Source: Bacilli bacterium (GTDB taxonomy: Bacteria; Bacillota_I; Bacilli_A; RFN20; CAG-826). From it: a DNA stretch of 64,000 nucleotides. The notes under the pieces are model-generated. The model searched no databases and had not been told where the DNA came from. It saw only the letters and a program-made list of their open reading frames with translations. The stretch is taken from the NCBI GenBank assembly GCA_045628045.1, contig JAZQOV010000011.1, positions 68,912-132,911 on the forward strand, given 5' to 3'. Each line of letters begins with the position of its first letter. The first letter of the stretch is position 1. Shown piece by piece: positions 7,180-19,748 of this stretch. The translations under genes were made by a program, and so were the position numbers.

Positions 7180-10100
7180 ATGGAAAAAAAGCACAAAATA
7201 TTTTCTTCGATAGGCATTTCTGCGATTGCACTTTTCTCTCTCGTTATTGCAGAACGTGGAATCGATGGATCTTTTTTGTCTGCAAAATTTCGTAATGTAA
7301 GTCAATACGGTTTATCACTTAATTCATCAAACTCATTTGCTGGTGGTAGTGGAACCAAAGTTGTTTATACAAATGGTAGCAATCCAGTTACATTTTCATA
7401 CACTTCTTGTTCTTCATTAAGTGGTGGACACGTAAAAATTAATGAAAACGGAACAATTGCTAACGAAGATCATATTAGATCTATAACTGGTGTTACACCT
7501 GTTTTTACATGCTCCAGCGAAGCAACTAGTTTTGAATTTAGAGCATCATATGATAAAGAAACTTGGGGTCAATGGGGGTCTTTAGCAAGTGGTAAAACAC
7601 GTCAATTTGAATCTGGACCTTATTACTTTGAATTTAAGGCTATTAATGGAGCAGTTAATTTAACTTCTCTTAATTTTGAATATTCATGTGAAAGAAATTG
7701 GACTGTCGAACCAGAAGGTGAAGATAGTGGAACTAAAGAATTTGTGAAAGTTGCATCTGCTTTGGATGACTATGCTGGAACATATTTAATTGTTTGTGAA
7801 TCAGAAGGTGTTGCATTTGATGGTTCTTTAACTAAATCTACAAGCACAGCGATTAGTGCTTCAGGAAATAAATTCGCTGTCACAATCACTGATGGAAAAA
7901 TTGCCTATACAGACGATATTGCTAACAAAGTTTTTGAAATTACTGATGACGGTGAAGACTCTAGTGGTAATATGACTTATCAAATCACATCACATTCGGG
8001 ATATAAAATTACAAATACTGCTGATAGCAATTCTATGAGCGTTTTAGATGTTGATGATGATACAGACTATTATAACTGGATTGGTTTTTGTGATAATGAT
8101 GGATCAGATAATGATTTCTATATTAAGGGAAGCGGAGGATCTTATTTAAGATACAATTCATCTAATACACAGTTCAGATATTACAAATCATCAACTTACA
8201 AAGGACAAGCAGAAGTTTTCTTGTATAAATTATCAAATGGATCTGTCCCGATTGGAATTCCAGAATATGAAGCAAAACTTCAAATAACTGATAATAATTC
8301 CGATAACTATATTTATGGTCATTCATTAAGTGAATCATTTGGAACTGAAGATTTTAAAGCATCTGTTTTAATGTCTAACGGAACTGAAACAGCCATTGAT
8401 CCAAGCCAATTAACTATTGATATTGAAAAAGGTGGTGCACATTATGCATCTAATACCGCGCTTAATAGCGAAGGCACTTATAACGTTACAATTTCATATG
8501 GAGAATTAGCTCCAGTTAAATATCAAATCACAGTAAGTAAGATTGCTGTTGCATCTGTTACTTTTGATAAGAGCTCATTACGCTTGAAACCATCAGAAGA
8601 TTACACACTTACTGCAACTGTATTACCAGAAACTGCATTTGACAAGTCTTTGACTTGGACTTCTACAAATAATTCAGTTGCGACAGTTTCTACATCGGGT
8701 AAAGTTACTGCTGTAGCTGATGGAACTGCAACAATTAAGGCAACCGCAAATAATGGTATATATGCATCTTGTGAAGTTACTGTTGCTTCAGCAGGACTTG
8801 TTGATCCAGGAATGCAAGCAGCTTATGAAGCAGCTATTGCTTTAAGCAATTCCTCCGAATCTAACAGTTCGTATGAATTTACTGGTGTTGTAGTTGGCAC
8901 AAGAACATCAGGATCAAATAAAGATGTGTATGTCCAAAGTGGCGATTATGCACTAGACGTTTATAACAGTGGAAAAACGATGGCTTATAAAGATGAAGTC
9001 ACTGTAAAATCCACATTAACAAAATATTCTGGAATTCCTGAAACAAAGACCATTAAGTCGTTCACAAATAATGGTCAATCAGTGTTGCCGCAAGCAAATG
9101 TAATTAATTCTGCATCAGATTTAGCTGATGCTAAGATTAATACATTATTAAATGCATCTGGAACAATTAAAACATTAAGTGCTTCAGGGTCGAGCATTAC
9201 GGGTTCAAACGATGTTACAATTACTTTAACTACATCAAATGGCGACATTGCTGTTTTTGCAAAGAAGAATTCCTATAGCGGAATAAAGACAACTCTCCAA
9301 GGATTTAAGGTCGGAGATATCATGAATATCGAAAATGGTATTAGAGGTATTTACAATACAACTGACCAAGTTTTACTTGTTTCAGAATCAGTTGTTACAA
9401 AAGGTACTCCAGTACACGTTGATGTTACAGGAATTACAGTTTCTCCAACAAATGTTGATGTCAACGTTAATAGCACAACAACATTAACTGCAACAATCGC
9501 ACCAGCAAACGCATCTAATAAAGGTGTTGTTTGGTCTTCAAGCAACTCAAATGTCGCGTCTGTTAATCAAAATGGTGTTGTTTCAGGTCATATTGCAGGA
9601 CAGTCTGCAACTATTTACGCAAAATCAGCTGAGAATAATTCAATTTCGGCTTCATGTACAGTTAATGTTAAAGCAATATCAGTTCAATCCGTGTCTTTAG
9701 ATCAAAATACTGCAACTATAGCTATTGGTGAAGAATTGACATTAACTCATACAATCTCACCATCTACTGCATCTAACCAAAATGTAACATGGTCAAGTAA
9801 TGATCAATCTGTTGCAACTGTTAGCAATGGTGTTGTTTCGGCGTTAGCTGAAGGTGAGGCAACTATTACAGTTAAGACTGATGATGGAAATCACACAGCA
9901 AGTTGTGTTGTTACTGTTACTGAAAAATCAGCAGTAAAAGAATGGGTTTTAGTTACTACGGCATCACAATTAATTAAAGATAACTTATATGTTATTGCTT
10001 GTAATTCTAAAGGCACAACTGCCGGAGATATTAGCAGTTCAATCATGGCTTCATTAGGTTCTACTTTTAGCAATGACAAATCAAAAATTACAACATTAAA

Positions 10101-12723
10101 TAATGATACAGTTCAATTAAAACTTGGTGGTACTACTGATAAATGGACATTTGCCAATTCAGATGGTGATTTATTAGGTGCTACTGCAGTAAAGAAACTT
10201 GCATGGGGCAGCGGCACAACAACTTGGAAGATTACATTCTCTGGAAATGATTGTAACTTAACAAATACATCATCAAGTTATGGAAGCATGTCATATAACT
10301 CAAGCAGTCCAAGATTTACTACATATAGTGCAACACAAACTGCAATTCAACTTTATACTCTAACTGGTGGTGCAACTCCAACTCCAGAACCAACATTAGA
10401 ATCAATTAAGGTTGATTCAAGTTCTCATAGAACATTCACCGTAGGTGATACTTTCGCTAAAGAAACCATTATGGCTGTTTATTCAGACGGTAATGAAGTT
10501 GATGTTACAAGCGAAGCAGCATTCTCTGGTTACAACATGAATTCTGCAGGAACTCAAACAGTCTCAGTTTCATATGGCGGAAAATCAACTTCATATCAAA
10601 TTACTGTTAATGCAAAAGTTGTAACATTAACAAGCATTACTGTTTCTGAAAATCATAGAACATTTAATGTAGGCGATACTTTCGTTGGAGAAACTGTCAC
10701 TGCTTACTATAGCGACGGATCTCATAAAGAAGTAAATGCAACATTCTCTGGTTATGACATGAGCACTGCTGGTACATATACCGTAAGTGTTTCATACACT
10801 GAAGGTGGAATCACAAAAGACACATCTTATACAATTACAGTTAAATCTTCAGGATCTGGTGGTGGCGGAGCATCAGGAACACATACAATTTTATCTTCCG
10901 ATGTGCCAACTTCATATGAAACAGATGGTGAAAAAACTGTAGATGATATCACATATGTGTTTAATCAAGTTGCTAATTCATATACACCTGGTTATATGCA
11001 ATGTAAGAAGAGCGTTTCTTATATTTACAACAAAACCGCTATTGCCGGTTTAAAGTCTATTAGTATTAATACAAGTAGCAAATCTTGGGGTGGCTCAGTT
11101 TATTATGGAACTAGTGAAGAACCATCTGCAAATAAAGCAACTTTAAGTGGTGGAAAATATTCCATTCCTTCTGGAAACTCATATTTTAATATTGTTACAA
11201 ATGGATCAACTGGTTATATTGAATCAATTGATATTGAATACTCAACAACTCCTGTTAATCCAACAGCTATTTCAATAAGTGGTGAAAATGAATTAACTCC
11301 AGGTTCAAGTACACAATTATCGCTTTCATTTAGCCCAAGCAACTGCAATGTTAAAGATGTTACTTGGTCTTCAAATAATACTTCAATCACAGTTGATCAA
11401 ACTGGAAAAGTTACAGTTTCAAGTACCGCTAAAGTTGGTGCTACTGCAACTATTACAGCAACTTCAAGAGAAGTTGGAACAGTAAAAGGAACATTCACTA
11501 TTACTGTTGTAGATAAACCGGTTGTTCAAAAAGATGCGTGGACAATGCTCATTTATATGTGCGGTGCTGATTTGGAGAGTGGGTATGCATCCAATAATGA
11601 TGGCTGCGCAACAGATGACTTAAAAGAGATCTATTCTTTGAGGAATAGTTTGCCTGACGATGTGAACATCGTTGTTCAAGCCGGCGGCGCTAAGGCTTGG
11701 TCATCTGAATATTCTTCCGTTATTAGCAAGGATAAAAGAAATAGATTCCACCTTACAAAATCTGGTTATGTAAAGGATTCACAAGATAGTAGAGTTAATA
11801 TGGGGTCAGAATCTTCTTTGGAAGACTTTGTTGAGTGGGGTTTAGAAACTTACCCGGCCGAAAAGGTTGGATTGGTTTTCTGGGATCACGGTAGTGCTAT
11901 GGGAGGTTGCTGTTTTGATGAACAATATAGCAGTGATGGACTTACTCCAGCTGAAGTAGCATCAGCAGTGCCAACAGCAATTTCAAAATCTGGATACAAT
12001 CAAAATCTCGAGTTTATTGGATATGACTGCTGCTTGATGTCTATACAAGACATTGCCGGATTAAATGCTCAATATGCAAATTATATGATTGCTTCGCAAG
12101 AATCTGAATGGGGTTATGGTTGGTCATATGATAAATTTGTTGATAATTTAATGAGTAAGAAATCAACAACCACGATTCTAAAGGCTTGCGTTGATGGTTT
12201 CTCTCAAGATACAACTTCTTCCTATAATAACTGGGGTGATCCAAATGATCAAACCTTAGCGTATTACAACTTACAAAATTGGGCTGCATACGAAAATGCT
12301 TGGGAAGATTTTGCTGACTACTTAAGCACTAGCGTTATTAAATCGTCTAGCAACTGGACTACATTTACCAAAGTGGTAAACCAAGCTCAAAAATACGGGT
12401 ATGATAGTGATTCAAATTATCAAAAGTATAATGGAGGTTATTGCTATGATATTTTCGATGTTAAGGATTTCCTTAACAAGATTAAATCTAGCAACGATTA
12501 TAAGAATAATAGTTCACTAATGACCAAGGTATCTACAATTGAAACAGCATACACTGGGTTAGGTATTTATAGTAAGTGTGGGTCTGCCGCTGGTAATTCA
12601 AACGGACTATGTTTCTTCTGCCCATTATCTGGTTATAATGAGATAGATGGAGAATATGCCTCAGCAAATACAAGATTTAAAGAATGGCGATCACTTTGCG
12701 TTGAATACGGTAAATGGTATTAA
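7180..12723 (+). CDS. giant surface protein: Big_2 domains, Ig-like repeats, shared DUF-like domains, C-terminal clostripain-like (peptidase C11) domain
   Basis: Signal peptide MEKKHKIFSSIGISAIALFSLVIA. Several Big_2-like segments (…VTFDKSSLRLKPSEDYTLTATVLPE…, …VTGITVSPTNVDVNVNSTTTLTATIAP…). Repeats like those of the preceding gene (SIKVDSSSHRTFTVGDTF…YQITV). The C-terminal ~400 aa contain WTMLIYMCGADLE…, WDHGSAMGG (His) and FIGYDCCLMS (Cys), the clostripain family signature. Confidence 0.75.
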   Translation: MEKKHKIFSSIGISAIALFSLVIAERGIDGSFLSAKFRNVSQYGLSLNSSNSFAGGSGTKVVYTNGSNPVTFSYTSCSSLSGGHVKINENGTIANEDHIRSITGVTPVFTCSSEATSFEFRASYDKETWGQWGSLASGKTRQFESGPYYFEFKAINGAVNLTSLNFEYSCERNWTVEPEGEDSGTKEFVKVASALDDYAGTYLIVCESEGVAFDGSLTKSTSTAISASGNKFAVTITDGKIAYTDDIANKVFEITDDGEDSSGNMTYQITSHSGYKITNTADSNSMSVLDVDDDTDYYNWIGFCDNDGSDNDFYIKGSGGSYLRYNSSNTQFRYYKSSTYKGQAEVFLYKLSNGSVPIGIPEYEAKLQITDNNSDNYIYGHSLSESFGTEDFKASVLMSNGTETAIDPSQLTIDIEKGGAHYASNTALNSEGTYNVTISYGELAPVKYQITVSKIAVASVTFDKSSLRLKPSEDYTLTATVLPETAFDKSLTWTSTNNSVATVSTSGKVTAVADGTATIKATANNGIYASCEVTVASAGLVDPGMQAAYEAAIALSNSSESNSSYEFTGVVVGTRTSGSNKDVYVQSGDYALDVYNSGKTMAYKDEVTVKSTLTKYSGIPETKTIKSFTNNGQSVLPQANVINSASDLADAKINTLLNASGTIKTLSASGSSITGSNDVTITLTTSNGDIAVFAKKNSYSGIKTTLQGFKVGDIMNIENGIRGIYNTTDQVLLVSESVVTKGTPVHVDVTGITVSPTNVDVNVNSTTTLTATIAPANASNKGVVWSSSNSNVASVNQNGVVSGHIAGQSATIYAKSAENNSISASCTVNVKAISVQSVSLDQNTATIAIGEELTLTHTISPSTASNQNVTWSSNDQSVATVSNGVVSALAEGEATITVKTDDGNHTASCVVTVTEKSAVKEWVLVTTASQLIKDNLYVIACNSKGTTAGDISSSIMASLGSTFSNDKSKITTLNNDTVQLKLGGTTDKWTFANSDGDLLGATAVKKLAWGSGTTTWKITFSGNDCNLTNTSSSYGSMSYNSSSPRFTTYSATQTAIQLYTLTGGATPTPEPTLESIKVDSSSHRTFTVGDTFAKETIMAVYSDGNEVDVTSEAAFSGYNMNSAGTQTVSVSYGGKSTSYQITVNAKVVTLTSITVSENHRTFNVGDTFVGETVTAYYSDGSHKEVNATFSGYDMSTAGTYTVSVSYTEGGITKDTSYTITVKSSGSGGGGASGTHTILSSDVPTSYETDGEKTVDDITYVFNQVANSYTPGYMQCKKSVSYIYNKTAIAGLKSISINTSSKSWGGSVYYGTSEEPSANKATLSGGKYSIPSGNSYFNIVTNGSTGYIESIDIEYSTTPVNPTAISISGENELTPGSSTQLSLSFSPSNCNVKDVTWSSNNTSITVDQTGKVTVSSTAKVGATATITATSREVGTVKGTFTITVVDKPVVQKDAWTMLIYMCGADLESGYASNNDGCATDDLKEIYSLRNSLPDDVNIVVQAGGAKAWSSEYSSVISKDKRNRFHLTKSGYVKDSQDSRVNMGSESSLEDFVEWGLETYPAEKVGLVFWDHGSAMGGCCFDEQYSSDGLTPAEVASAVPTAISKSGYNQNLEFIGYDCCLMSIQDIAGLNAQYANYMIASQESEWGYGWSYDKFVDNLMSKKSTTTILKACVDGFSQDTTSSYNNWGDPNDQTLAYYNLQNWAAYENAWEDFADYLSTSVIKSSSNWTTFTKVVNQAQKYGYDSDSNYQKYNGGYCYDIFDVKDFLNKIKSSNDYKNNSSLMTKVSTIETAYTGLGIYSKCGSAAGNSNGLCFFCPLSGYNEIDGEYASANTRFKEWRSLCVEYGKWY

Positions 12724-12757
12724 AAAATGCACAGGAGATAATCCTGTGCATTTTTAT
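12724..12757. terminator. bidirectional intrinsic terminator
   Basis: AAAAA-ATGCACAGG-agataat-CCTGTGCAT-TTTTT lies between convergent genes. Confidence 0.65.
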
Positions 12758-12774
12758 TAATCTAAAATAAATAT

Positions 12775-13311
12775 TTATTTTATCTTATTTAATTTTAATA
12801 ATGGTTTCACTAGAAGCGGAACCACAATGATATAAAGAATTGATGTAGTAATTGTGGTAGCAGCTCTTGTGAAAATTGTTAACCACACTAAACCACTTGG
12901 GTATTCATAAATAAGAGCATCAAGCCAAATAACAAATGAATTAGATAATGTCACAACAAGGCCTGATAAGATAACAACAAAAGCCCAATAAAGTTTGTCT
13001 TTTGTGAGGTCTTTTTTCCTCATCATTAAACCCACAATAAGGGCTCTAAAAACATGAGGTAAAATCCATAATGGAGTTGTGGGAGTTAAACCATATGGAC
13101 CAATGAGTTGATTGAAAAATTCCCCGGAAATCGCCACCAAAACGCCATCAATTGGGCCTCCAATGACAGATGAGAGGATGATTGCAATTCCCTTAAAAGT
13201 GATCTCTTGACCAGGGAATCTAATCGTCACAAAAGATAGTGCAATATAGAGTGCAAGTGATAACCCAAGAAAGGTTAATCTAAATACAGGTTTTTTGTTT
13301 ACTAGCGTCAT
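12775..13311 (-). CDS. small integral membrane protein, ECF-transporter S-component-like
   Basis: 178 aa with about 5-6 TM helices. Size and topology resemble vitamin/queuosine-precursor ECF S components. No specific motif assignable. Confidence 0.45.
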   Translation of the reverse strand: MTLVNKKPVFRLTFLGLSLALYIALSFVTIRFPGQEITFKGIAIILSSVIGGPIDGVLVAISGEFFNQLIGPYGLTPTTPLWILPHVFRALIVGLMMRKKDLTKDKLYWAFVVILSGLVVTLSNSFVIWLDALIYEYPSGLVWLTIFTRAATTITTSILYIIVVPLLVKPLLKLNKIK

Positions 13312-13394
13312 TATTGTGCTTCTTTATTTATGTGAAAAATTATAGCAAACCCATTTAAAAATAAAAGAAGCTCAATAAGTAAGTAAACAAATTT

Positions 13395-13460
13395 CTAACC
13401 CGTGCGCACTTTCAAGGTTAAAGTGTGCGCGTGCGAGGCAAAAATTTTTGCTTTTTTAAG
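13395..13460 (+). promoter_or_regulatory. structured 5' leader upstream of the membrane-protein gene (11-bp hairpin plus AT-rich terminator-like hairpin)
   Basis: GTGCGCACTTT-caaggtt-AAAGTGTGCGC hairpin (13402-13430), followed by GCAAAAATTTTTGC-TTTTTT (13438-13457), about 45 nt before the ATG at 13501. Confidence 0.3.
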
Positions 13461-13500
13461 TAAAAATATTTTGTTAAACTTTGGTAGCGGAGAAAAATTT

Positions 13501-14172
13501 ATGAAAAAATTTAAAACATTATTTACTATCTTATGCCTCGGTGGTCTTTGGGGATTACTTGAAGCTACACTTGGAACCTTACTTCATCTTCCAGTAATTC
13601 ATGAAGTTGTTTTCTTTGGTTCTACAGCAGTTTTACTTCCAATTGCCTATTTAATTACTGGCAGAGCATATAAAGTTACTGGCAGAGCCAGAGCAGCCTT
13701 ATATGTTGGCTTAGTAGCAGCCGCTATTAAATCAGTAACATTTGCATTTGGACTTCCAGTTCAATATGTCATTAACCCAATGGTTTCTATTCTTTTAGAA
13801 TCATCAGTTATGGCTGTTGCATTTAAAGTTAGCAAACCTGCAAATGTTTGTTCACCTAAATCATTCGTTACATTTGTTGTTGCATCTTTAGCATTTAGAG
13901 TCATTTATGTTGGCTATTCAATGGCTACAGCAGAACCATTCGGATCAGCATATTTAGTCGCTGGTTCAGTTATGTGGAATGCCATTATTGACTACGTTAT
14001 TGTTGCTCTTGGAATCTCATGTATTTACGCTGTTATTTACATGCTTGTTGGAACACTCTTAACACGCAAAATATCCGTAAAATCCCTGGAAAAAGTCCAA
14101 CATTTTGCCTATTCTCCAGTATTTTCTATTGTGATGATTGTAACTGCAGTTGTCGCAACAATATTGTTATAA
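13501..14172 (+). CDS. integral membrane protein (about 6 TM), possible substrate-capture/transport component
   Basis: The likely start is MKKFKTLFTILCLGG at 13501; the hairpin leader above sits immediately upstream of it. The track start at 13402 lies inside the structured leader. Hydrophobic throughout. Confidence 0.55.
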   Translation: MKKFKTLFTILCLGGLWGLLEATLGTLLHLPVIHEVVFFGSTAVLLPIAYLITGRAYKVTGRARAALYVGLVAAAIKSVTFAFGLPVQYVINPMVSILLESSVMAVAFKVSKPANVCSPKSFVTFVVASLAFRVIYVGYSMATAEPFGSAYLVAGSVMWNAIIDYVIVALGISCIYAVIYMLVGTLLTRKISVKSLEKVQHFAYSPVFSIVMIVTAVVATILL

Positions 14173-14185
14173 TTTGAATTATATT

Positions 14186-14213
14186 TTGAAATTTATTTTC
14201 GCTGTGTTATATT
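14186..14213 (+). promoter_or_regulatory. promoter of antisense sRNA-1
   Basis: TTGAAA, 16 nt, extended -10 TGtTATATT. Confidence 0.45.
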
Positions 14214-14220
14214 ATTTGTG

Positions 14221-14287
14221 ACGGGTACTGGTTTGTGCACGTAATAAAAGGATGTCAGGTTGCTGCCTGGCATCCTTTCTTCATTTT
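14221..14287 (+). ncRNA. candidate type I antitoxin sRNA-1 (~65 nt)
   Basis: Starts about 7 nt after the -10. Ends at the GGATGTCAGG-ttgctg-CCTGGCATCC hairpin plus TTTCTTCATTTT (14250-14287). The 5' 13 nt (GGGTACTGGTTTG, 14223-14235) are repeated at 14298-14310 inside the convergent mRNA. Confidence 0.45.
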
Positions 14288-14312
14288 AAGCAAAGGCGGG
14301 TACTGGTTTGCG

Positions 14313-14431
14313 CTAGTTGCTATTAAGCATTACGAGTAACACTAGGATAACAACTAGCACCAGAAGGTACTCGATAGCAAGTATCCTCCCTTCTGACCAA
14401 GCACCCGCGGTTGCCCGTAGATCTTGATCAT
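14313..14431 (-). CDS. candidate type I toxin locus 1: leader ORF MIKIYGQPRVLGQKGGYLLSSTFWC (14354-14431) overlapping a conserved hydrophobic frame …IEYLLVLVVILVLLVMLNSN* (14313-14375, -1 frame)
   Basis: GGAGG RBS 5 nt before the ATG. The hydrophobic frame is conserved in all three units with many synonymous changes but has no ATG/GTG/TTG. A conserved AUC codon sits 9 nt after an internal GGAGG. Confidence 0.45.
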
Positions 14432-14453
14432 ACCTGCCTCCATTTAAAACTAT

Positions 14454-14512
14454 CCGATTTTATTAATCGGCGAGCACATTATTTCACAACGTATATTCCT
14501 CTTGTCAAGAGG
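14454..14512 (-). promoter_or_regulatory. toxin-1 promoter (TTGACA, spacer, TGAAATAAT), 15-bp palindrome CCTCTTGWCAAGAGG over the -35, and 5'-UTR hairpin
   Basis: -35 TTGACA at 14503-14508 on the minus strand. Palindrome at 14498-14512. -10 at 14481-14489. UTR hairpin CCGATT-aataa-AATCGG at 14454-14470. Confidence 0.5.
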
Positions 14513-14648
14513 TCAAAAAAGTTACCTATATTAATATAGAAACTAAGATTTACTTATAACTCTAGAACTATACTTATATTAATATTAGGTAAAAAATTTT
14601 TAATTTTTGTTTATATATTGTTTCTAGTACTGGTGAATTGTTTTTTCT

Positions 14649-14676
14649 TTGTAAATAGTTTTGAATGTGTTATATT
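14649..14676 (+). promoter_or_regulatory. promoter of antisense sRNA-2
   Basis: TTGTAA, 16 nt, extended -10 TGtTATATT. Confidence 0.45.
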
Positions 14677-14684
14677 ATAAGCGA

Positions 14685-14749
14685 TAGATACTTAGGCGCT
14701 ATCAAATGAAAAGATATCAGGTTCCAGCCCGATATCTTTTTTTCGTTTT
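14685..14749 (+). ncRNA. candidate type I antitoxin sRNA-2
   Basis: The 5' GATAGATACTTAGGCG (14683-14698) is repeated at 14757-14771. Terminator GATATCAGG-ttccag-CCCGATATC plus T7CGTTTT (14711-14749). Confidence 0.45.
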
Positions 14750-14775
14750 GAACTCGATAGATACTTAGACGTTAG

Positions 14776-14903
14776 TTATTGCTTAGAATTATCTTGAATT
14801 ATTTCAAGTAAAACAAGGACAATAACTAGCATAACCAGATACTGGATGGCATACGCCCTCCTCTCTGACTAAGCACCCATCGAATTCTCTGGATCTTAGC
14901 CAT
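14776..14903 (-). CDS. candidate type I toxin locus 2: leader ORF MAKIQRIRWVLSQRGGRMPSSIWLC (14826-14903) overlapping the hydrophobic frame …AIQYLVMLVIVLVLLEIIQDNSKQ* (ends 14776)
   Basis: Same architecture as unit 1. A frame-3 TAG at leader positions 33-35 limits the hydrophobic frame to downstream of the leader's middle. Confidence 0.45.
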
Positions 14904-14948
14904 ATCTATCTCCTCCAAAACTATCCGATTCTATTAATCGGCGTGCAT

Positions 14949-14983
14949 ATTATTTCACACTGCATATTCCCCTTGTCAAGAGG
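14949..14983 (-). promoter_or_regulatory. toxin-2 promoter with palindromic operator CCCCTTGTCAAGAGG
   Basis: TTGACA -35 inside the palindrome (14969-14983). -10 TGAAATAAT at 14949-14957. UTR hairpin CCGATTaatagAATCGG just downstream. Confidence 0.5.
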
Positions 14984-15119
14984 TCAAAAAAGTTACCTAT
15001 ATTAATATAGAAACTAAGATTTACTTATAACTCTAGAACTATACTTATATTAATATTAGGTAAAAAATTTCTAATTTTTGTTTATGTATTGTTTCTAGTA
15101 CTGGTGAATTGTTTTTTCT

Positions 15120-15147
15120 TTGTTAATACTTGTGAATGTGCTATATT
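15120..15147 (+). promoter_or_regulatory. promoter of antisense sRNA-3
   Basis: TTGTTA, 16 nt, extended -10 TGcTATATT. Confidence 0.45.
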
Positions 15148-15153
15148 ATATTC

Positions 15154-15221
15154 GACAGGTACTTAGTAGACTAGTCAAATGAAAAGATATCAGGTTGCAG
15201 CCCGATATCTTTTTTTCATTT
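15154..15221 (+). ncRNA. candidate type I antitoxin sRNA-3
   Basis: The 5' CAGGTACTTAGTAGACTA (15156-15173) is repeated exactly at 15231-15248. Terminator GATATCAGG-ttgcag-CCCGATATC plus T-run (15186-15221). Confidence 0.45.
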
Positions 15222-15245
15222 AGGACTCAGCAGGTACTTAGTAGA

Positions 15246-15364
15246 CTAATTATCTATCAGCATTAAAAGTAACACCAATATGATAATTAGTACAATAAGG
15301 TATTGGATGTCATAAGACCTCCTCCCTGACTAAGCACCCTTTGAGCTCGTTGGATCTTAGCCAT
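15246..15364 (-). CDS. candidate type I toxin locus 3: leader ORF MAKIQRAQRVLSQGGGLMTSNTLLY (15287-15364) overlapping the hydrophobic frame …DIQYLIVLIIILVLLLMLIDN* (ends 15246)
   Basis: Same architecture. GGAGG RBS. Internal GGAGG-N4-ATG (frame 1) and GGAGG-N9-ATC (hydrophobic frame). Confidence 0.45.
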
Positions 15365-15409
15365 ACCTGCCTCCTGCTAAACTATCCGATTTTTAAAATC
15401 GGCGTGCAT

Positions 15410-15444
15410 ATTATTTCATAGGTTATATTCCCCTTGTCAAGAGG
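15410..15444 (-). promoter_or_regulatory. toxin-3 promoter with palindromic operator CCCCTTGTCAAGAGG
   Basis: -10 TGAAATAAT at 15410-15418. Palindrome with -35 at 15430-15444. UTR hairpin CCGATTTTTAAAAATCGG. Confidence 0.5.
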
Positions 15445-15591
15445 ACTAAAAAGTTACCTTATATTAATATAACTCCATTGGATTTATTTACTAAGTAAAG
15501 ATTTACTATATTAATAATAAGGTAAAAATTTAAAAAATTTGGTTCCTATTATATATTTAGTGCATAAAATCGAACTTTTTCTTTGAAAAGA

Positions 15592-15620
15592 TTGTTTTAA
15601 TGCGCTCGCTCGTGTATGAT
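15592..15620 (+). promoter_or_regulatory. promoter of the purine-catabolism operon
   Basis: TTGTTT, 17 nt, TGtTATGAT. RBS AGGAG precedes the ATG at 15648. Confidence 0.4.
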
Positions 15621-15647
15621 ATTTATGCACATACATAGGAGAACTTA

Positions 15648-16217
15648 ATGGTTGGTATTGTCCTTGCGGGTGGTTATTCATCCCGAGCCAAAGTTAATAA
15701 GCTCCTCCTGGAGGTAGATCGTAAACCTCTTATTCGTCATACAATTGACACTTTGAAACCTTTCTGTAAAAAGGTTTTTGTTGTGACAGGAAAATATCAT
15801 GATGAACTTAGTCAAGTTTTAGATGATGTTGAGATTGTTTGTAACAAAGATTTTGATTTAGGAATGTTTTCTAGCGTGCTTGCAGGAATTAATGCTGCTC
15901 TAGGCGAAGATGTTTTACTTATCCCAGGTGATATTTCTAATGTGGCTAAAACCACTATTGAAGCTTTGCTTTACGGAAATAAAGACATCCGTATTCCTTC
16001 TTATGAAGGAATTACAGGACATCCTGTTTTTATTTCGAAGAAATATGTTGAACTTTTATCTCATGAACCAGTTAGTTCCAGATTATGTGATTTTCTTAAC
16101 GCGCACGAGTGTGCAAAGGAAGTTATCAGTGTAAATGACCCTTTTATCAATTTTGATATTGATACGATTGAGGATTACAACAGATTTATTAATACAAGAA
16201 AGGAAGTTACTTTATGA
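15648..16217 (+). CDS. MobA-like NTP-transferase (molybdenum cofactor cytidylyl/guanylyltransferase family)
   Basis: N-terminal GIVLAGGYSSR…NKLLL motif. Overlaps the next gene by 4 nt, in an operon with the Mo-hydroxylase subunits. Confidence 0.7.
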   Translation: MVGIVLAGGYSSRAKVNKLLLEVDRKPLIRHTIDTLKPFCKKVFVVTGKYHDELSQVLDDVEIVCNKDFDLGMFSSVLAGINAALGEDVLLIPGDISNVAKTTIEALLYGNKDIRIPSYEGITGHPVFISKKYVELLSHEPVSSRLCDFLNAHECAKEVISVNDPFINFDIDTIEDYNRFINTRKEVTL

Positions 16218-16981
16218 AAGCAAAATCTTTCATTAGACCTTCTTCTTTAGAAGAGGCCTATAAGCTTGTTAAAGCTTCACCAAAGAACAAAATTGTCGCT
16301 GGTGGACTTTGGCTTAAAAAAGGAAACGCTGAAGCAGAAACTCTCATTGATATTTCATCTCTTGGCCTAGACAAAATCTTAGACAAAAAAGAATACGTTG
16401 AAGTTGGCGCAATGGTTTCCCAAAGAGAACTTGAAAAATCTTCACTTGTTCCTGAAGTAATTAGAGAAGCAACTGCATTAGTTATGGGACCAGCATTCCG
16501 TAATATCGCGTCAGTTGGAGGATCAGTTTATGGAAAATATGGTTTTTCTGACATTGTCACAGCATTACTTGTATACAAAGTAGAACTCGTTTTCTACCCA
16601 GAAGCAGTAATCACACTTGATGAATACGTCAAAAAACCTGGATTTTATGATGGAATTTTAACTCACATAAGAATTTACAAAGATAATCGCAAGGCTTTCT
16701 TTAAGAAAGTTGAAATTACTGCACTTGATTATCCAATTCTTAACGTTGCAGTTTCCGAAGGAAAAGAATGCAAAATTGTTATTGGTTCACGCCCACTTGT
16801 TGCATGCGTTTGCGAGCAAGCAAGCGCACTTGCTAGCAAAGGTGAAAAGGATTTTGAAAAGATCGCTGCTTTAGCAGTTGAAGAAACAAAATTCGGTGAT
16901 TCAATCGCCACCAAAGGTGAATATAGAAAACAACTTGCACTCACTTATGTAAGACGTGGTCTTGAGGAGGTTAACAAATAA
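16214..16981 (+). CDS. molybdenum hydroxylase FAD-binding (medium) subunit, CoxM/XdhB-like
   Basis: 255 aa with a CO dehydrogenase flavoprotein-like fold. Operon context. Confidence 0.7.
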   Translation: MKAKSFIRPSSLEEAYKLVKASPKNKIVAGGLWLKKGNAEAETLIDISSLGLDKILDKKEYVEVGAMVSQRELEKSSLVPEVIREATALVMGPAFRNIASVGGSVYGKYGFSDIVTALLVYKVELVFYPEAVITLDEYVKKPGFYDGILTHIRIYKDNRKAFFKKVEITALDYPILNVAVSEGKECKIVIGSRPLVACVCEQASALASKGEKDFEKIAALAVEETKFGDSIATKGEYRKQLALTYVRRGLEEVNK

Positions 16982-17433
16982 TGTTAGTCAAATTCAATCT
17001 CAACGGACTTGATATCGAAGTCAATGTAAAACCAGGCGAGTATCTTTTAGATACACTTAGAGCTTATGGTGTTAAATCAGTCAAAAAAGGCTGTGATGGT
17101 TCCGCATGCGGAGTCTGTACAGTTCTTCTTGATGATAAACCAGTTTTATCTTGCTCAGTTTTAACTGCAAAAGTTGAAGGTCACAAAGTGACCACAGTTG
17201 AAGCAATTCAAGATGAAGCTGCTAAATTATCCGAATGCTTCTCTCGTGAAGGTGCAGATCAGTGCGGCTTCTGTAATGCAGCATTCGCACTTATGGTGCA
17301 CGCACTCAAAAAAGAAAATCCACATCCAACAGATGAGGAAATCAAAGATTATATGGTCGGAAACCTTTGCAGATGCACAGGTTATCAATCTCAACAAAAA
17401 GCAATTAAAGCTTATTTAGGAGGTAAGAAATAA
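16981..17433 (+). CDS. molybdenum hydroxylase [2Fe-2S] small subunit
   Basis: CDGSACGVCTV and …CGFCN…NLCRCTGY cysteine motifs. Confidence 0.85.
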   Translation: MLVKFNLNGLDIEVNVKPGEYLLDTLRAYGVKSVKKGCDGSACGVCTVLLDDKPVLSCSVLTAKVEGHKVTTVEAIQDEAAKLSECFSREGADQCGFCNAAFALMVHALKKENPHPTDEEIKDYMVGNLCRCTGYQSQQKAIKAYLGGKK

Positions 17434-19748
17434 TGAAAAAGAATTTCAAAGTTGTAAACAACTTAACTCCTAGTGTTGATGGAAAAGGTCTTATGCAAGG
17501 TCGTGCTGTTTACACAGACGACATTGCTCCTCAAGGTGCTTTAATTGTTAAAATTTTAAGATCACCACATGCTTTCGCAAGAATTAAATCAATTGACGTT
17601 AGTGAAGCTGAAAAACTTCCTGGCGTTGCATGTATTTTAACCAAGGATAACGTCCCACACGTTTCATTTACACGTGCAGGACAAGGTTATCCTGAACCAT
17701 CACCATACGATAAATTCATCTTGGATGAATATGTTCGTTATGTTGGTGATGAAGTTGCTGCAGTTGCAGCAGTTGATGAAGAAACTGCTTTAGCAGCAAT
17801 GAAGCTCATCAAAGTTGATTATGAGGTTTTAAAACCAGTCCTCAACTTTGAAGAAGCTTTTGAAAACGAATCAGTTATCCACCCAGAAGATGGAATCCAT
17901 GACATGTTCCCAATTGGTTTTGAACCAAAGAAGAATGTTGCAGCATCTTATGAGATGGAAGTTGGCAACGTCGAAGAAGAATTAAAGAAATCTGAAGTTG
18001 TTGTCGAAGACACATTCTATTCACAAGCACAAGCTCACGCTATGATCGAGCCACACACTTGTAATGCACGCTTAGACGAGCACAATAGACTTGTTGTTTA
18101 TTCCACAACTCAAACTCCATATCATATGCGTAGAATCATCTGCAAGACCTTAGGTCTTCCAGTTGATAGAGTTAGAGTCATTAAACCAAGAGTTGGTGGT
18201 GGCTTTGGTGGAAAACAAGCTTTCCATGGTGAAATGTTTGTCTCCCTTGTTACTTTAAGAACAAATAAACCTGCAAAATGTGTTTATACTCGTGAAGAAG
18301 TATTTGGTTGTTCTTATACGAGACACCCAATGAGAATCTCACTTAGAGTTGGTGCAAATAAAGATGGTGTTATTAACGCAATCGATTGCCGCACTCTTTC
18401 AGATACAGGTGCTTATGGTGAACACGCTTTAACAGTCTTTATGATTGTTGGTTCTAAAGTTTTGCCACTTTATAACAAAGTTAAAGCTGTTAAATTCGGT
18501 GGAAGAGTTGTTTACACGAACCATGTATCTGCGGGCGCATATCGTGGTTATGGTGCTATTCAAGGTAACTACGCAGTTGAATCCATCATTGATGAACTTG
18601 CGGAAAAGCTTCATATGGATCCAATTAAGCTTCGTGAAATTAACTCCATGAAGGAAAAAGAAACTTCCCCAATCTTTAAGATTATGGGTGAAGGTACCGA
18701 AGGTACAGAAATGATTATGGAAAGCTGCAAGCTTCCATATTGTATTAAACGTGGTCGTGAACTTATGGATTGGGACAAGAAATACCCAGTTAAGAAAGTT
18801 GGAGATCACAAAATTAGATCAGTTGGTTGCGCAATTGCCATGCAAGGTTCAGGAATTCCATTCTTAGATATGGGTTCTTGTACAATTAAACTTAATGATG
18901 GTGGCTCATACATGGTCACCGTTGGTGCTACTGATATTGGACAAGGCTCTGATACAGTTATTTCTCAAATTGTTGCAGAAGCTCTTCAAACAACAATGGA
19001 CAAAGTCATTATCTATTCATCTGATACAGACTTAACTCCATACGATTGTGGTGCTTACGCTTCTTCAACAACCTATGTTTCTGGTAACGCAGCATATAAT
19101 GCTGCTTGCAAGATGAGAGAAAGACTTCTTAAAGAAGCTGCAGTTGAACTCAAAGTAAAACCAGATGAGGTTGAATTTGATGGAACAACATTTAAAGCTG
19201 GCAAGAAGTCAATCTCACTTGTTGATTTATCAACAGGAAGACTTTATAACAACAATACACATCAAATTGCTGTTACAGAATCTTATCATGGTCATGTTTC
19301 TCCACCTCCATTTATGGCAGCATTTGGAGAATTCGAATTTGACACAGAAACTTACGAATACAAGATGATTAAGTACGTTACAGTTACTGACTGTGGTACA
19401 ACAATTAACCCAGCATTGGCCAAAGGCCAAGTTGAAGGTGGTATTATCCAAGGTTATGGCATGGCTTCAAGTGAAGCGGTGCTTTATAGCTCAAATGGAA
19501 AACTACTTTCAAATACTTTTGATACTTATCACATTCCAACTGTCAAAGAAGTTGGTGAGCTTGTTACTGAATTTGCTGATTCATATGAACCAACAGGTCC
19601 ATTTGGCGCAAAATCAGTTGGTGAAATTGGTATTGATACACCTCCAGCAGTACTCTGCAATGCAGTTTACAATGCTTTCGGTGTAAGAATTCATCATTTA
19701 CCAATCACACCAGAAAAAATCTTTGAAACAATGAAGGCTAAAAAATAA
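17433..19748 (+). CDS. xanthine dehydrogenase-family molybdopterin-binding large subunit
   Basis: 771 aa. Aldehyde oxidase/xanthine dehydrogenase a/b hammerhead and MoCo-binding regions (GGGFGGK, …GQGS…). Confidence 0.85.
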   Translation: MKKNFKVVNNLTPSVDGKGLMQGRAVYTDDIAPQGALIVKILRSPHAFARIKSIDVSEAEKLPGVACILTKDNVPHVSFTRAGQGYPEPSPYDKFILDEYVRYVGDEVAAVAAVDEETALAAMKLIKVDYEVLKPVLNFEEAFENESVIHPEDGIHDMFPIGFEPKKNVAASYEMEVGNVEEELKKSEVVVEDTFYSQAQAHAMIEPHTCNARLDEHNRLVVYSTTQTPYHMRRIICKTLGLPVDRVRVIKPRVGGGFGGKQAFHGEMFVSLVTLRTNKPAKCVYTREEVFGCSYTRHPMRISLRVGANKDGVINAIDCRTLSDTGAYGEHALTVFMIVGSKVLPLYNKVKAVKFGGRVVYTNHVSAGAYRGYGAIQGNYAVESIIDELAEKLHMDPIKLREINSMKEKETSPIFKIMGEGTEGTEMIMESCKLPYCIKRGRELMDWDKKYPVKKVGDHKIRSVGCAIAMQGSGIPFLDMGSCTIKLNDGGSYMVTVGATDIGQGSDTVISQIVAEALQTTMDKVIIYSSDTDLTPYDCGAYASSTTYVSGNAAYNAACKMRERLLKEAAVELKVKPDEVEFDGTTFKAGKKSISLVDLSTGRLYNNNTHQIAVTESYHGHVSPPPFMAAFGEFEFDTETYEYKMIKYVTVTDCGTTINPALAKGQVEGGIIQGYGMASSEAVLYSSNGKLLSNTFDTYHIPTVKEVGELVTEFADSYEPTGPFGAKSVGEIGIDTPPAVLCNAVYNAFGVRIHHLPITPEKIFETMKAKK

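Follow-up and report, generated by a model that had tools for sequence, protein, structure and literature searches.

Within the window, by which we mean the whole 64,000-nucleotide (nt) stretch of Bacilli contig JAZQOV010000011.1 that was analysed, the minus strand between positions 14180 and 15600 holds three tandem units of about 465 nt, named U1 to U3, in each of which a short hydrophobic open reading frame (ORF) is conserved as a coding frame while no canonical start codon lies at or upstream of its conserved N-terminus. Judged from their anatomy, the three units are predicted to be orthogonal type I toxin–antitoxin modules, and the locus is best described as a new family of such modules with an unusual start-codon solution. 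The best reading of that solution, in which we place about even confidence, is that translation of the toxin would begin by near-cognate initiation at an AUC or AUU codon, driven by a Shine-Dalgarno (SD) sequence that is itself locked in a hairpin.

Three tandem units with the anatomy of type I toxin–antitoxin modules

Read along the minus strand, each unit opens with a sigma-70-type promoter (TTGACA … TGAAATAAT, with an extended -10 element), which is invariant in the three window units. It is followed by a hairpin at the 5′ end of the toxin mRNA (CCGATT-loop-AATCGG), a first SD sequence with its AUG (SD1 and AUG1), a second SD sequence (SD2), the hydrophobic frame and a G+C-rich bidirectional terminator. 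The plus strand carries a convergent promoter (TTGnAA-16-TGnTATATT), from which a small RNA (sRNA) of about 63 nt is predicted to run to the common terminator. The locus is compact, with a toxin mRNA of about 230 nt facing this sRNA, and the terminator of each unit is flanked by a unit-specific direct repeat (CGGGTACTGGTTTG in U1, CGATAGATACTTAG in U2 and CAGGTACTTAGTAGACTA in U3). Mean column identity among the units is 81%. An earlier note on this DNA, made for the stretch 14298–14431, which runs on the minus strand from AUG1 to the repeat in the 3′ untranslated region (3′UTR) of U1, had treated the units as type I toxin modules; a hydrophobic ORF facing a convergent sRNA that has its own promoter, terminator and complementarity agrees with that view. 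The features of the three units are as follows.

14180–14650: unit U1
14478–14508, minus strand: U1 toxin promoter, assigned from the sequence (TTGACA … TGAAATAAT)
14454–14470, minus strand: U1 5′-terminal hairpin (helix 1), CCGATT-loop-AATCGG
14354–14441, minus strand: U1 SD1 (14437–14441), AUG1 (14429–14431) and 25-codon leader frame, which also hold arms of the long-distance helix and the leader hairpin
14373–14389, minus strand: U1 SD2 GGAGG (14385–14389), loop TTG (14378–14380) and AUC (14373–14375), forming the SD2 hairpin and the proposed toxin start
14313–14375, minus strand: U1 toxin ORF, (M/I)EYLLVLVVILVLLVMLNSN and stop
14297–14313, minus strand: U1 3′UTR repeat GCGCAAACCAGTACCCG, predicted binding site of the sRNA 5′ end; the strand that pairs with the SD1 region begins with the 3′ part of this repeat, AGTACCCG
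14247–14278, both strands: U1 bidirectional terminator, common to toxin mRNA and sRNA
14186–14282, plus strand: U1 putative antitoxin sRNA gene, with promoter TTGAAA-16-TG.TATATT (14186–14213), RNA of about 63 nt (about 14220–14282) and repeat copy (14222–14238)
14645–15121: unit U2
14949–14979, minus strand: U2 toxin promoter
14826–14941, minus strand: U2 5′ hairpin (14925–14941), SD1, AUG1 (14901–14903) and 25-codon leader frame (14826–14903)
14776–14861, minus strand: U2 SD2 (14857–14861), loop ATG (14850–14852), AUC (14845–14847) and toxin ORF (M/I)QYLVMLVIVLVLLEIIQDNSKQ and stop (14776–14847)
14755–14771, minus strand: U2 3′UTR repeat CGTCTAAGTATCTATCG
14709–14740, both strands: U2 bidirectional terminator
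14649–14744, plus strand: U2 putative sRNA gene, with promoter (14649–14676) and RNA of about 62 nt (about 14683–14744)
15116–15600: unit U3
15410–15440, minus strand: U3 toxin promoter
15287–15402, minus strand: U3 5′ hairpin (15386–15402), SD1, AUG1 (15362–15364) and 25-codon leader frame (15287–15364)
15246–15322, minus strand: U3 SD2 (15318–15322), loop ATG (15311–15313), AUC (15306–15308) and toxin ORF (M/I)QYLIVLIIILVLLLMLIDN and stop (15246–15308)
15231–15250, minus strand: U3 3′UTR repeat ATTAGTCTACTAAGTACCTG, overlapping the toxin stop codon
15182–15213, both strands: U3 bidirectional terminator
15120–15217, plus strand: U3 putative sRNA gene, with promoter (15120–15147) and RNA of about 64 nt (about 15154–15217)

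The hydrophobic frame is a selected coding frame

Relatives of the locus were reached by synteny: the membrane protein (13501–14172) and the MobA-like protein (15648–16217) that flank it were used to find homologues, whose contigs were inspected. In uncultured Bacilli related to Candidatus Fiminaster this locus held four further units, which brings the total to seven units from five lineages and five independent assemblies (the window and Logan runs SRR19135262, SRR21151013, SRR21151029 and SRR21150973). L059 stems from the same species or a very close one, and its only unit is about 88% identical to U1; L051 and L052 come from contigs whose flanking membrane protein is 72–73% identical to that of the window, and L061 from one whose MobA-like protein is 83% identical. 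Because five independent assemblies carry the arrangement, a mis-assembly shared by all copies, which the earlier note had named as a possible source of the conservation, is excluded.

The peptides read from the hydrophobic frame (IEYLLVLVVILVLLVMLNSN in U1, IQYLVMLVIVLVLLEIIQDNSKQ in U2 and IQYLIVLIIILVLLLMLIDN in U3, each ending at a stop codon) are membrane-type sequences of 20–23 residues with a polar N/D/S tail and no Pro or Gly motif. Over the 17 codons that start from AUY (AUC or AUU), the seven units vary in 11, 2 and 16 columns at the first, second and third codon position, respectively, and 86% of toxin codons have T at the second position. Pairwise codon differences in this frame are 132 synonymous versus 119 non-synonymous (53% synonymous), compared to 3/268 (1%) and 43/217 (17%) in the other two frames, both of which also contain stops; in 5000 column shuffles the observed synonymous fraction was never reached. 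This signature recurs when U1, U2, U3 and L059, which have no in-frame canonical start, are taken alone (variable columns 10/1/14, 47% synonymous, 0/5000 shuffles), and the toxin frames of these four contain neither a stop nor a frameshift. The hydrophobic frame is therefore a selected coding frame, as had been proposed from the purifying selection apparent in the three window copies. Since the paralogues have diverged to 81% mean column identity and have yet kept their coding signature, the peptide has been under selection while lacking a canonical start, and we regard the comparative evidence for selection on a start-less toxin ORF as strong. All seven toxin ORFs were missed by gene calling and have no words in common with any database protein, a practical warning that start-less toxin genes are invisible to gene callers and protein databases.

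A conserved AUC or AUU follows a perfect Shine-Dalgarno sequence

In all seven units GGAGG is followed after 9 nt by AUY, which is AUC in six of them and AUU in L059. Every one of the nine spacer positions varies. Amino-acid conservation begins exactly at AUY (I-E/Q-Y-L), the residues before it being ILA, AYA, SYD, PLC or HG, and upstream of it no residues are conserved in any frame. Five of the seven units have an in-frame TAG eight codons upstream of AUY, just 5′ of SD2, where U1 has TGG; this stop confines the start to two AGG codons, three spacer codons and AUY. In the same number of units, the interval from the upstream stop to the conserved N-terminus is free of in-frame canonical starts, and in U2, U3 and L061 the TAG is followed only by AGG AGG, that is by SD2 itself, and by three non-start codons before AUY is reached.

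Our check of the sequence agrees with the layout described before: AUG1 with its GGAGG-type SD opens a 25-codon frame in U1, U2 and U3, the second GGAGG is followed after 4 nt by a codon of the leader frame (TTG, ATG and ATG, respectively) and, at a distance of 9 nt, by an ATC that belongs to the -1 frame, and a TAG just 5′ of the second GGAGG closes the hydrophobic frame in U2 and U3. The statement that this frame has no ATG, GTG or TTG has to be narrowed, as it holds at and upstream of the conserved N-terminus but not inside the ORF, where such codons exist at non-conserved positions (GTG at codon 6 of U1, ATG at codon 6 of U2, and TTG and GTG at codons 11 and 12 of U3). The GTG or ATG at codon 6 was considered as a start and rejected: only U1, L059 and U2 have it, it is missing from U3, L051, L052 and L061, and synonymous-type conservation extends upstream of it.

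Among the explanations that had been offered for the start-less frame, initiation at AUC is favoured by these comparisons, AUY 9 nt after the internal GGAGG being the only candidate start conserved in all seven units, the change from AUC to AUU included. That change separates L059 from U1, is synonymous in the toxin frame and falls at a position that is unpaired in both units. A distance of 9 nt is also the commonest spacing for an exact GGAGG among the genes of the window (range 4–11, 45 genes). In Escherichia coli, AUC and AUU initiate with Met at about 1–2% (0.02–3%) of the AUG level (bioRxiv 10.1101/063800), and the AUU starts of infC and pcnB resemble the present arrangement in having a proper SD, good spacing and AUY as a deliberately weak start (10.1101/063800). 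Non-canonical start codons are counted among the brakes on type I toxins (PMC8167048, PMC10643148) and, like long-distance occlusion of an SD by 5′–3′ pairing, have already been reviewed as control layers of these genes (PMC8167048). Our literature searches returned general mentions of non-canonical starts in type I toxins, and an AUC or AUU case was not found among them. To our knowledge, no validated type I toxin has an AUC or AUU start. A tRNA scan of the window for an unusual initiator found no tRNA genes.

Several points weigh against initiation at AUY, one of which arises from the local RNA structure. SD2 is predicted to lie in a hairpin (GGA(G)GNC with GNC(A)UCC) that carries a canonical NUG codon in its loop; AUC is within the 3′ arm in four lineages, and in U1 and L059 the anti-SD is CCUUCU and AUY is in the loop. 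In those four lineages AU(C) is thus also constrained as the anti-SD arm, so that the conservation of AUC is not independent evidence of a start-codon function. The loop NUG stands 4–5 nt after the same GGAGG in all seven units and is out of the toxin frame in five of them; a spacing of 4–5 nt is used by a few window genes, and NUG should therefore outcompete AUY and capture most initiations. An in-frame TTG stands two codons before AUC in L051 and L052 (TTG TGC ATC). Finally, the family is narrow, with only seven units in one narrow clade and no others from pattern scans of genomes, metagenomes, viruses, plasmids and phages, and the mechanistic steps beyond sequence, namely actual initiation at AUY, toxicity, the involvement of an RNase and any role of leader translation, are steps that we infer.

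The TTG of L051 and L052 also suggests a rival explanation, in which the true start is an in-frame canonical codon as in these two relatives, and the units of the window, L059 and L061 are silent or decaying and are kept for their RNA or antitoxin. A further relative (L060) in which the toxin half is lost while the sRNA gene stays would be consistent with such decay. However, this TTG lies only 3 nt after GGAGG, below the minimum SD–start spacing of 4 nt in the 45 window genes, and is missing in four of the five lineages, and the start-less U1, U2, U3 and L059 are substantially diverged and still bear the full coding signature. We consider this explanation improbable.

The canonical ATG, TTG or GTG in the SD2 hairpin loop is present in all seven units, and its frame varies relative to both AUG1 and the toxin. 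It matches the AUG1 frame in most units, falls in the third frame in L061, and in L051 and L052 reads in the frame of the toxin (TTG) or of the leader (GTG); a constant agreement of the loop NUG with the AUG1 frame was considered, and L061 rejects it. In five units this codon (14378–14380, 14850–14852 and 15311–15313 in the window, and its counterparts in relatives) opens an out-of-frame mini-ORF of 8 or 16 codons, and it may act as a decoy start.

The leader frame varies in phase and length

AUG1 opens a leader of 25 codons in U1 (MIKIYGQPRVLGQKGGYLLSSTFWC), U2 (MAKIQRIRWVLSQRGGRMPSSIWLC) and U3 (MAKIQRAQRVLSQGGGLMTSNTLLY), of 33 codons in L059 and of 38 codons in L051, L052 and L061. AUG1 and AUY are 56 nt apart in the first four of these units and 55 nt apart in the last three because of a 1-nt length change in a hairpin loop. 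Measured from AUG1, the toxin frame is consequently -1 in the former and +1 in the latter ((AUY-AUG1) mod 3 = 2 versus 1). The leader stop falls at toxin codon 7/8 in the window units, at 15/16 in L059, where the original stop has been lost through a change of TAG to TGG that the toxin frame sees as a synonymous CTA to CTG, and at the end of the toxin ORF in the other three relatives. Whichever frame it is in, the leader ORF of all seven units runs through SD2 and AUY without a stop.

These data bear on a second proposal of the earlier note, a programmed -1 frameshift stimulated by the internal GGAGG. With ribosomes that start at AUG1 or the loop NUG, it would yield a leader–toxin fusion product. 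Such an event would suit U1–U3 and L059, where the toxin frame is at -1 from AUG1 as well as from the loop NUG and the leader contains a GGAGG. In L051, L052 and L061, however, the 55-nt distance places the toxin frame +1 to AUG1, and the loop start of L061 uses the third frame, that of L051 and L052 being either in frame (TTG) or +1 (GTG). A conserved X XXY YYZ heptamer is absent from the stretch that separates the in-frame TAG from the leader stop, and nothing upstream of AUY is conserved at the residue level in any frame. The locus thus differs from dnaX-type -1 frameshifting in having neither a fixed frame relation nor a conserved slippery heptamer. The variable relation between AUG1 and the toxin frame, together with the variable leader length, excludes a conserved -1 frameshift, and we find this explanation scarcely credible.

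The leader, for all its apparent conservation of MAK…VLSQ.GG, is not a conserved peptide. MAK…VLSQ corresponds to two hairpin arms and the conserved GG to SD2, and compensating RNA helices together with the internal SD explain these residues instead, the frame and the length of the leader being variable. From this comparison, the leader is in all likelihood not a functional peptide, and its conservation is that of an RNA structure. U1 alone has an extra in-frame ATG (14441–14443) four codons upstream of AUG1 (MEAG-MIK…), which overlaps SD1.

Covarying helices are predicted to mask both ribosome-binding sites

An RNAalifold consensus was computed from six full-length mRNAs. It contains eight helices in which 93% of cells are paired, compared to 31–44% in slid controls, and 13 pairs are changed on both sides, compared to 1–3 in the controls; the covariation score was reached by 0/500 shuffles. 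Single-sequence folds were 5.5–6.6 standard deviations more stable than those of shuffled sequences. A long-distance helix of 17 pairs (helices 2 and 3, columns 24–44 with 182–202), five of which are changed on both sides, pairs the 3′UTR repeat and the spacer that precedes the terminator with a segment that extends from AGUUUU, across SD1, as far as the AU of AUG1. It occurs in two classes (GGCAGGUA/UACCYGCC and GAUAGAUA/UAUCUAUC) and its pairing is class-specific, with -18 to -23 kcal/mol within a class versus -7 to -12 kcal/mol with the other class. The leader forms a hairpin of its own (GGCUAAG/CUUAGUC, or GAUCAAG/CUUGGUC in U1 and L059, with a U-A to C-G exchange), and a further consensus hairpin lies inside the toxin ORF. 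Together with the SD2 hairpin, the long-distance helix and the leader hairpin are therefore predicted to mask both ribosome-binding sites in the full-length RNA.

A mask of this kind over SD1 would suit a mok/hok-like coupling, the third explanation that had been put forward, in which translation from SD1–AUG1 would melt the SD2 hairpin or supply re-initiating ribosomes, with SD1 as the controlled entry. SD1 and AUG1 are conserved in 7/7 units at a spacing of 5–8 nt, they are covered by a helix that is both covarying and class-specific, the leader ORF is open across SD2 and AUY throughout, and there are precedents in hok, which requires translation of mok, and in ldrX, proposed for ldrD (PMC4147584). 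On the other hand, the conservation of SD1–AUG1 could be due solely to its role as a pairing arm of the RNA, and SD2 is a perfect GGAGG, so that the toxin frame has a ribosome-binding site of its own, unlike hok. Neither the frame nor the stop position of the leader is conserved, and a defined termination–re-initiation geometry is therefore unlikely; moreover the sRNA shares the polarity of SD1 and cannot block it, competing instead for the 3′UTR, which is the opposite of what Sok does. We view coupling as a tentative possibility; it is compatible with AUY as the start codon.

A candidate alternative helix of 6 bp links AGRUAU (SD1–AUG1) to toxin codons 2–4 (RUAYCU) and can be paired in all units (alignment A3 columns 39–44 with 104–109; for example, window 14901–14906 with 14836–14841). 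Its A-U/G-C exchange coincides with the TAT/TAC alternatives of the Tyr codon, and 26/500 shuffles reach its score, a weak signal. The Tyr codon (TAT/TAC) covaries with the SD1–AUG1 class (AGAUAU/AGGUAU) and with the 3′UTR (GUAUCU/GUACCU), and the three can pair alternately. As U3 mixes a U1-like SD1 with a U2-like leader hairpin, the covariation of the Tyr codon is not a single phylogenetic split.

The sRNA is predicted to pair with the toxin 3′UTR

Convergent transcription of the repeat copies means that the 5′ end of the sRNA can form a perfect duplex of 16–20 bp with the toxin 3′UTR, at or after the stop codon. Cognate sRNA–3′UTR duplexes have energies of -25 to -34 kcal/mol, compared to -11 to -16 kcal/mol for the cross-pairs among U1, U2 and U3. 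The best sRNA site within the first 150 nt of the toxin mRNA is weaker and inconsistent between units. The 5′ part of the sRNA resembles SD1, having the same polarity, and is not complementary to it, and both compete for the same 3′UTR element. We also looked for a consistent translational effect of sRNA binding and rejected it, as constrained folding shifted the accessibility of SD1 and SD2 in different directions across units. In view of this lack of a consistent change, we infer that the sRNA most likely acts by duplex-dependent decay of the toxin mRNA, as RatA does on txpA (PMC4147584).

A proposed mechanism

Under near-cognate initiation at AUC or AUU driven by SD2, the toxin would be read from its own frame, its first codon being the AUC (AUU in one relative) 9 nt downstream of the perfect GGAGG. 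The initiator tRNA would decode AUY as Met with an efficiency of at most a few percent of that of AUG, and the absence of a canonical start would constitute a built-in brake on toxin synthesis. SD2 would be held in its local hairpin, with AUY in the 3′ arm or the loop, while SD1–AUG1 would be masked by the long-distance helix and the leader hairpin. If translated, the leader would act only via ribosome traffic: it would either help in the manner of mok, by melting the SD2 hairpin, or compete as a decoy. Finally, the sRNA of about 63 nt would pair through its 5′ 16–20 nt with the unit-specific 3′UTR repeat and trigger duplex-dependent decay.

A more elaborate scheme, which we think rather unlikely, is that the toxin is translated from AUC/AUU only, under the gate of the overlapping out-of-frame ORFs at SD1–AUG1 and at the loop NUG, with the sRNA and SD1 competing for the 3′UTR in a three-way RNA switch. 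If true, the locus would combine near-cognate initiation with a switch in which the SD1 region, the sRNA and toxin codons 2–4 pair through related sequences. We know of no type I system for which this logic has been described.

Weak starts and layered RNA locks are an already expected theme among type I toxins. A start-less toxin ORF kept across paralogues and species would represent natural, conserved AUC/AUU initiation used as a regulatory brake in bacteria. The three orthogonal copies and the natural variants (a frame-shifted leader, a lost leader stop, the change of AUC to AUU and an orphan sRNA) make the mechanisms directly testable.

Comparison with known type I systems

The known systems that come closest are set out here together with their points of difference, beginning with par (RNA I/Fst and RNA II) of the Enterococcus faecalis plasmid pAD1. 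Like the present units, par has convergent promoters and a common bidirectional terminator that gives complementary stem-loops, direct repeats on either side of the terminator that provide a second complementarity in trans, a hairpin over the toxin SD, a 5′-terminal helix and low-G+C Gram-positive hosts (PMC7472228). In contrast to the par/Fst-Ldr group, the mRNA repeat is here in the 3′UTR, at or after the stop codon, and not over the translation initiation region, so that the sRNA cannot occlude the toxin start as in par. The present toxin also lacks the PXXXG motif and the charged C-terminal tail of Fst/Ldr, a Pfam or NCBIfam match and a canonical start, and has 20–23 residues compared to about 33 in Fst.

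The hok/mok/sok system of plasmid R1 shares an overlapping upstream ORF with a strong ribosome-binding site, a 5′–3′ fold-back that masks this site and a small hydrophobic toxin (PMC4147584). Sok, however, targets the mok ribosome-binding region, whereas the sRNA described here is predicted to target the 3′UTR and shares the polarity of SD1; the toxin has its own perfect SD and no homology to Hok, and the frame and stop of its leader are not conserved. In aapA/IsoA of Helicobacter pylori, a 5′–3′ long-distance fold-back likewise occludes an SD, but there the occluded SD is that of the toxin and the antitoxin hits the 5′ region, whereas here it is the SD of the leader and the antitoxin would hit the 3′ partner of the helix.

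The txpA/RatA and bsrG/SR4 pairs of Bacillus subtilis also consist of convergent RNAs that pair at their 3′ ends, away from the ribosome-binding site (PMC4147584); their antitoxins act via RNase III-dependent decay, and SR4 in addition refolds the SD region remotely (PMC4147584). The present units differ in that the cis overlap comprises the terminator (about 32 nt) plus a trans repeat of 16–20 nt, compared to 75–120 nt of continuous overlap, in having an unrelated and much shorter toxin, and in the extra leader ORF and long-distance helix. The locus thus mixes traits of par, hok, aapA, txpA/RatA, bsrG/SR4 and possibly ldr, and departs from each of these families in its defining features.

Distribution, copy number and neighbouring features

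More distant relatives have about 125 nt between the two flanking genes and no unit. Sequence searches of several kinds returned no further members. Neither blastn in distant mode with U2 against PLSDB plasmids and INPHARED phages nor tblastn of the toxin frame against plasmids gave a match; pattern scans of viral contigs gave nothing or chance matches within protein genes; a metagenome scan with the 5′ hairpin pattern returned 35 loci, all of them chance matches by nhmmer; and a scan with the promoter pattern of a genome collection that does not hold the source genome returned 13 chance matches and no relatives. At the protein level, Pfam and NCBIfam had no match to the toxin and leader peptides at E<=10, a search with the 48-residue open toxin frame of U1 found no word-sharing candidate, and exact-protein look-ups for two window proteins gave nothing useful. 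In the interval 12000–18000, Rfam cmscan (E<=1) gave four chance matches, all outside the units, and nothing else.

Copy number differs between close relatives, L059 (5781–6251) having one unit where the window has three, with flanking proteins 97–100% identical. The toxin and sRNA part of the single unit shares about 88% identity with U1, and the upstream flank about 91% with that of U3, which suggests either recombination between the ends of the array or a recent triplication. In L060 (785–993; ENA ERZ1767598), the sRNA promoter, an sRNA with GATAGATATTTAGG at its 5′ end and the terminator are kept between the same flanking genes, and the toxin half is gone, leaving an orphan antitoxin. The contig of L061 begins within the toxin 3′UTR (L061:1–10), a break that may have been caused by the terminator and repeat or by a tandem array.

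Directly upstream of every toxin -35 box stands an AT-rich palindrome (CTATATTAATATAG / TTATATTAATATAAGG) followed by GGTAACTTTTTT. It is also kept in L051, L052 and L061, and could be an UP element or an operator. Its copies in the window are:

14526–14539: AT-rich palindrome
14997–15010: AT-rich palindrome
15454–15472: AT-rich palindrome
14573–14588: further copy
15044–15059: further copy

Elsewhere in the window, a gene for a protein of 1847 residues (7180–12723) has smpB on one side and an ECF S-component gene on the other. It is absent at that position in L059, L051, L052 and other relatives, and the region looks like a strain-specific insertion of 5.6 kb.

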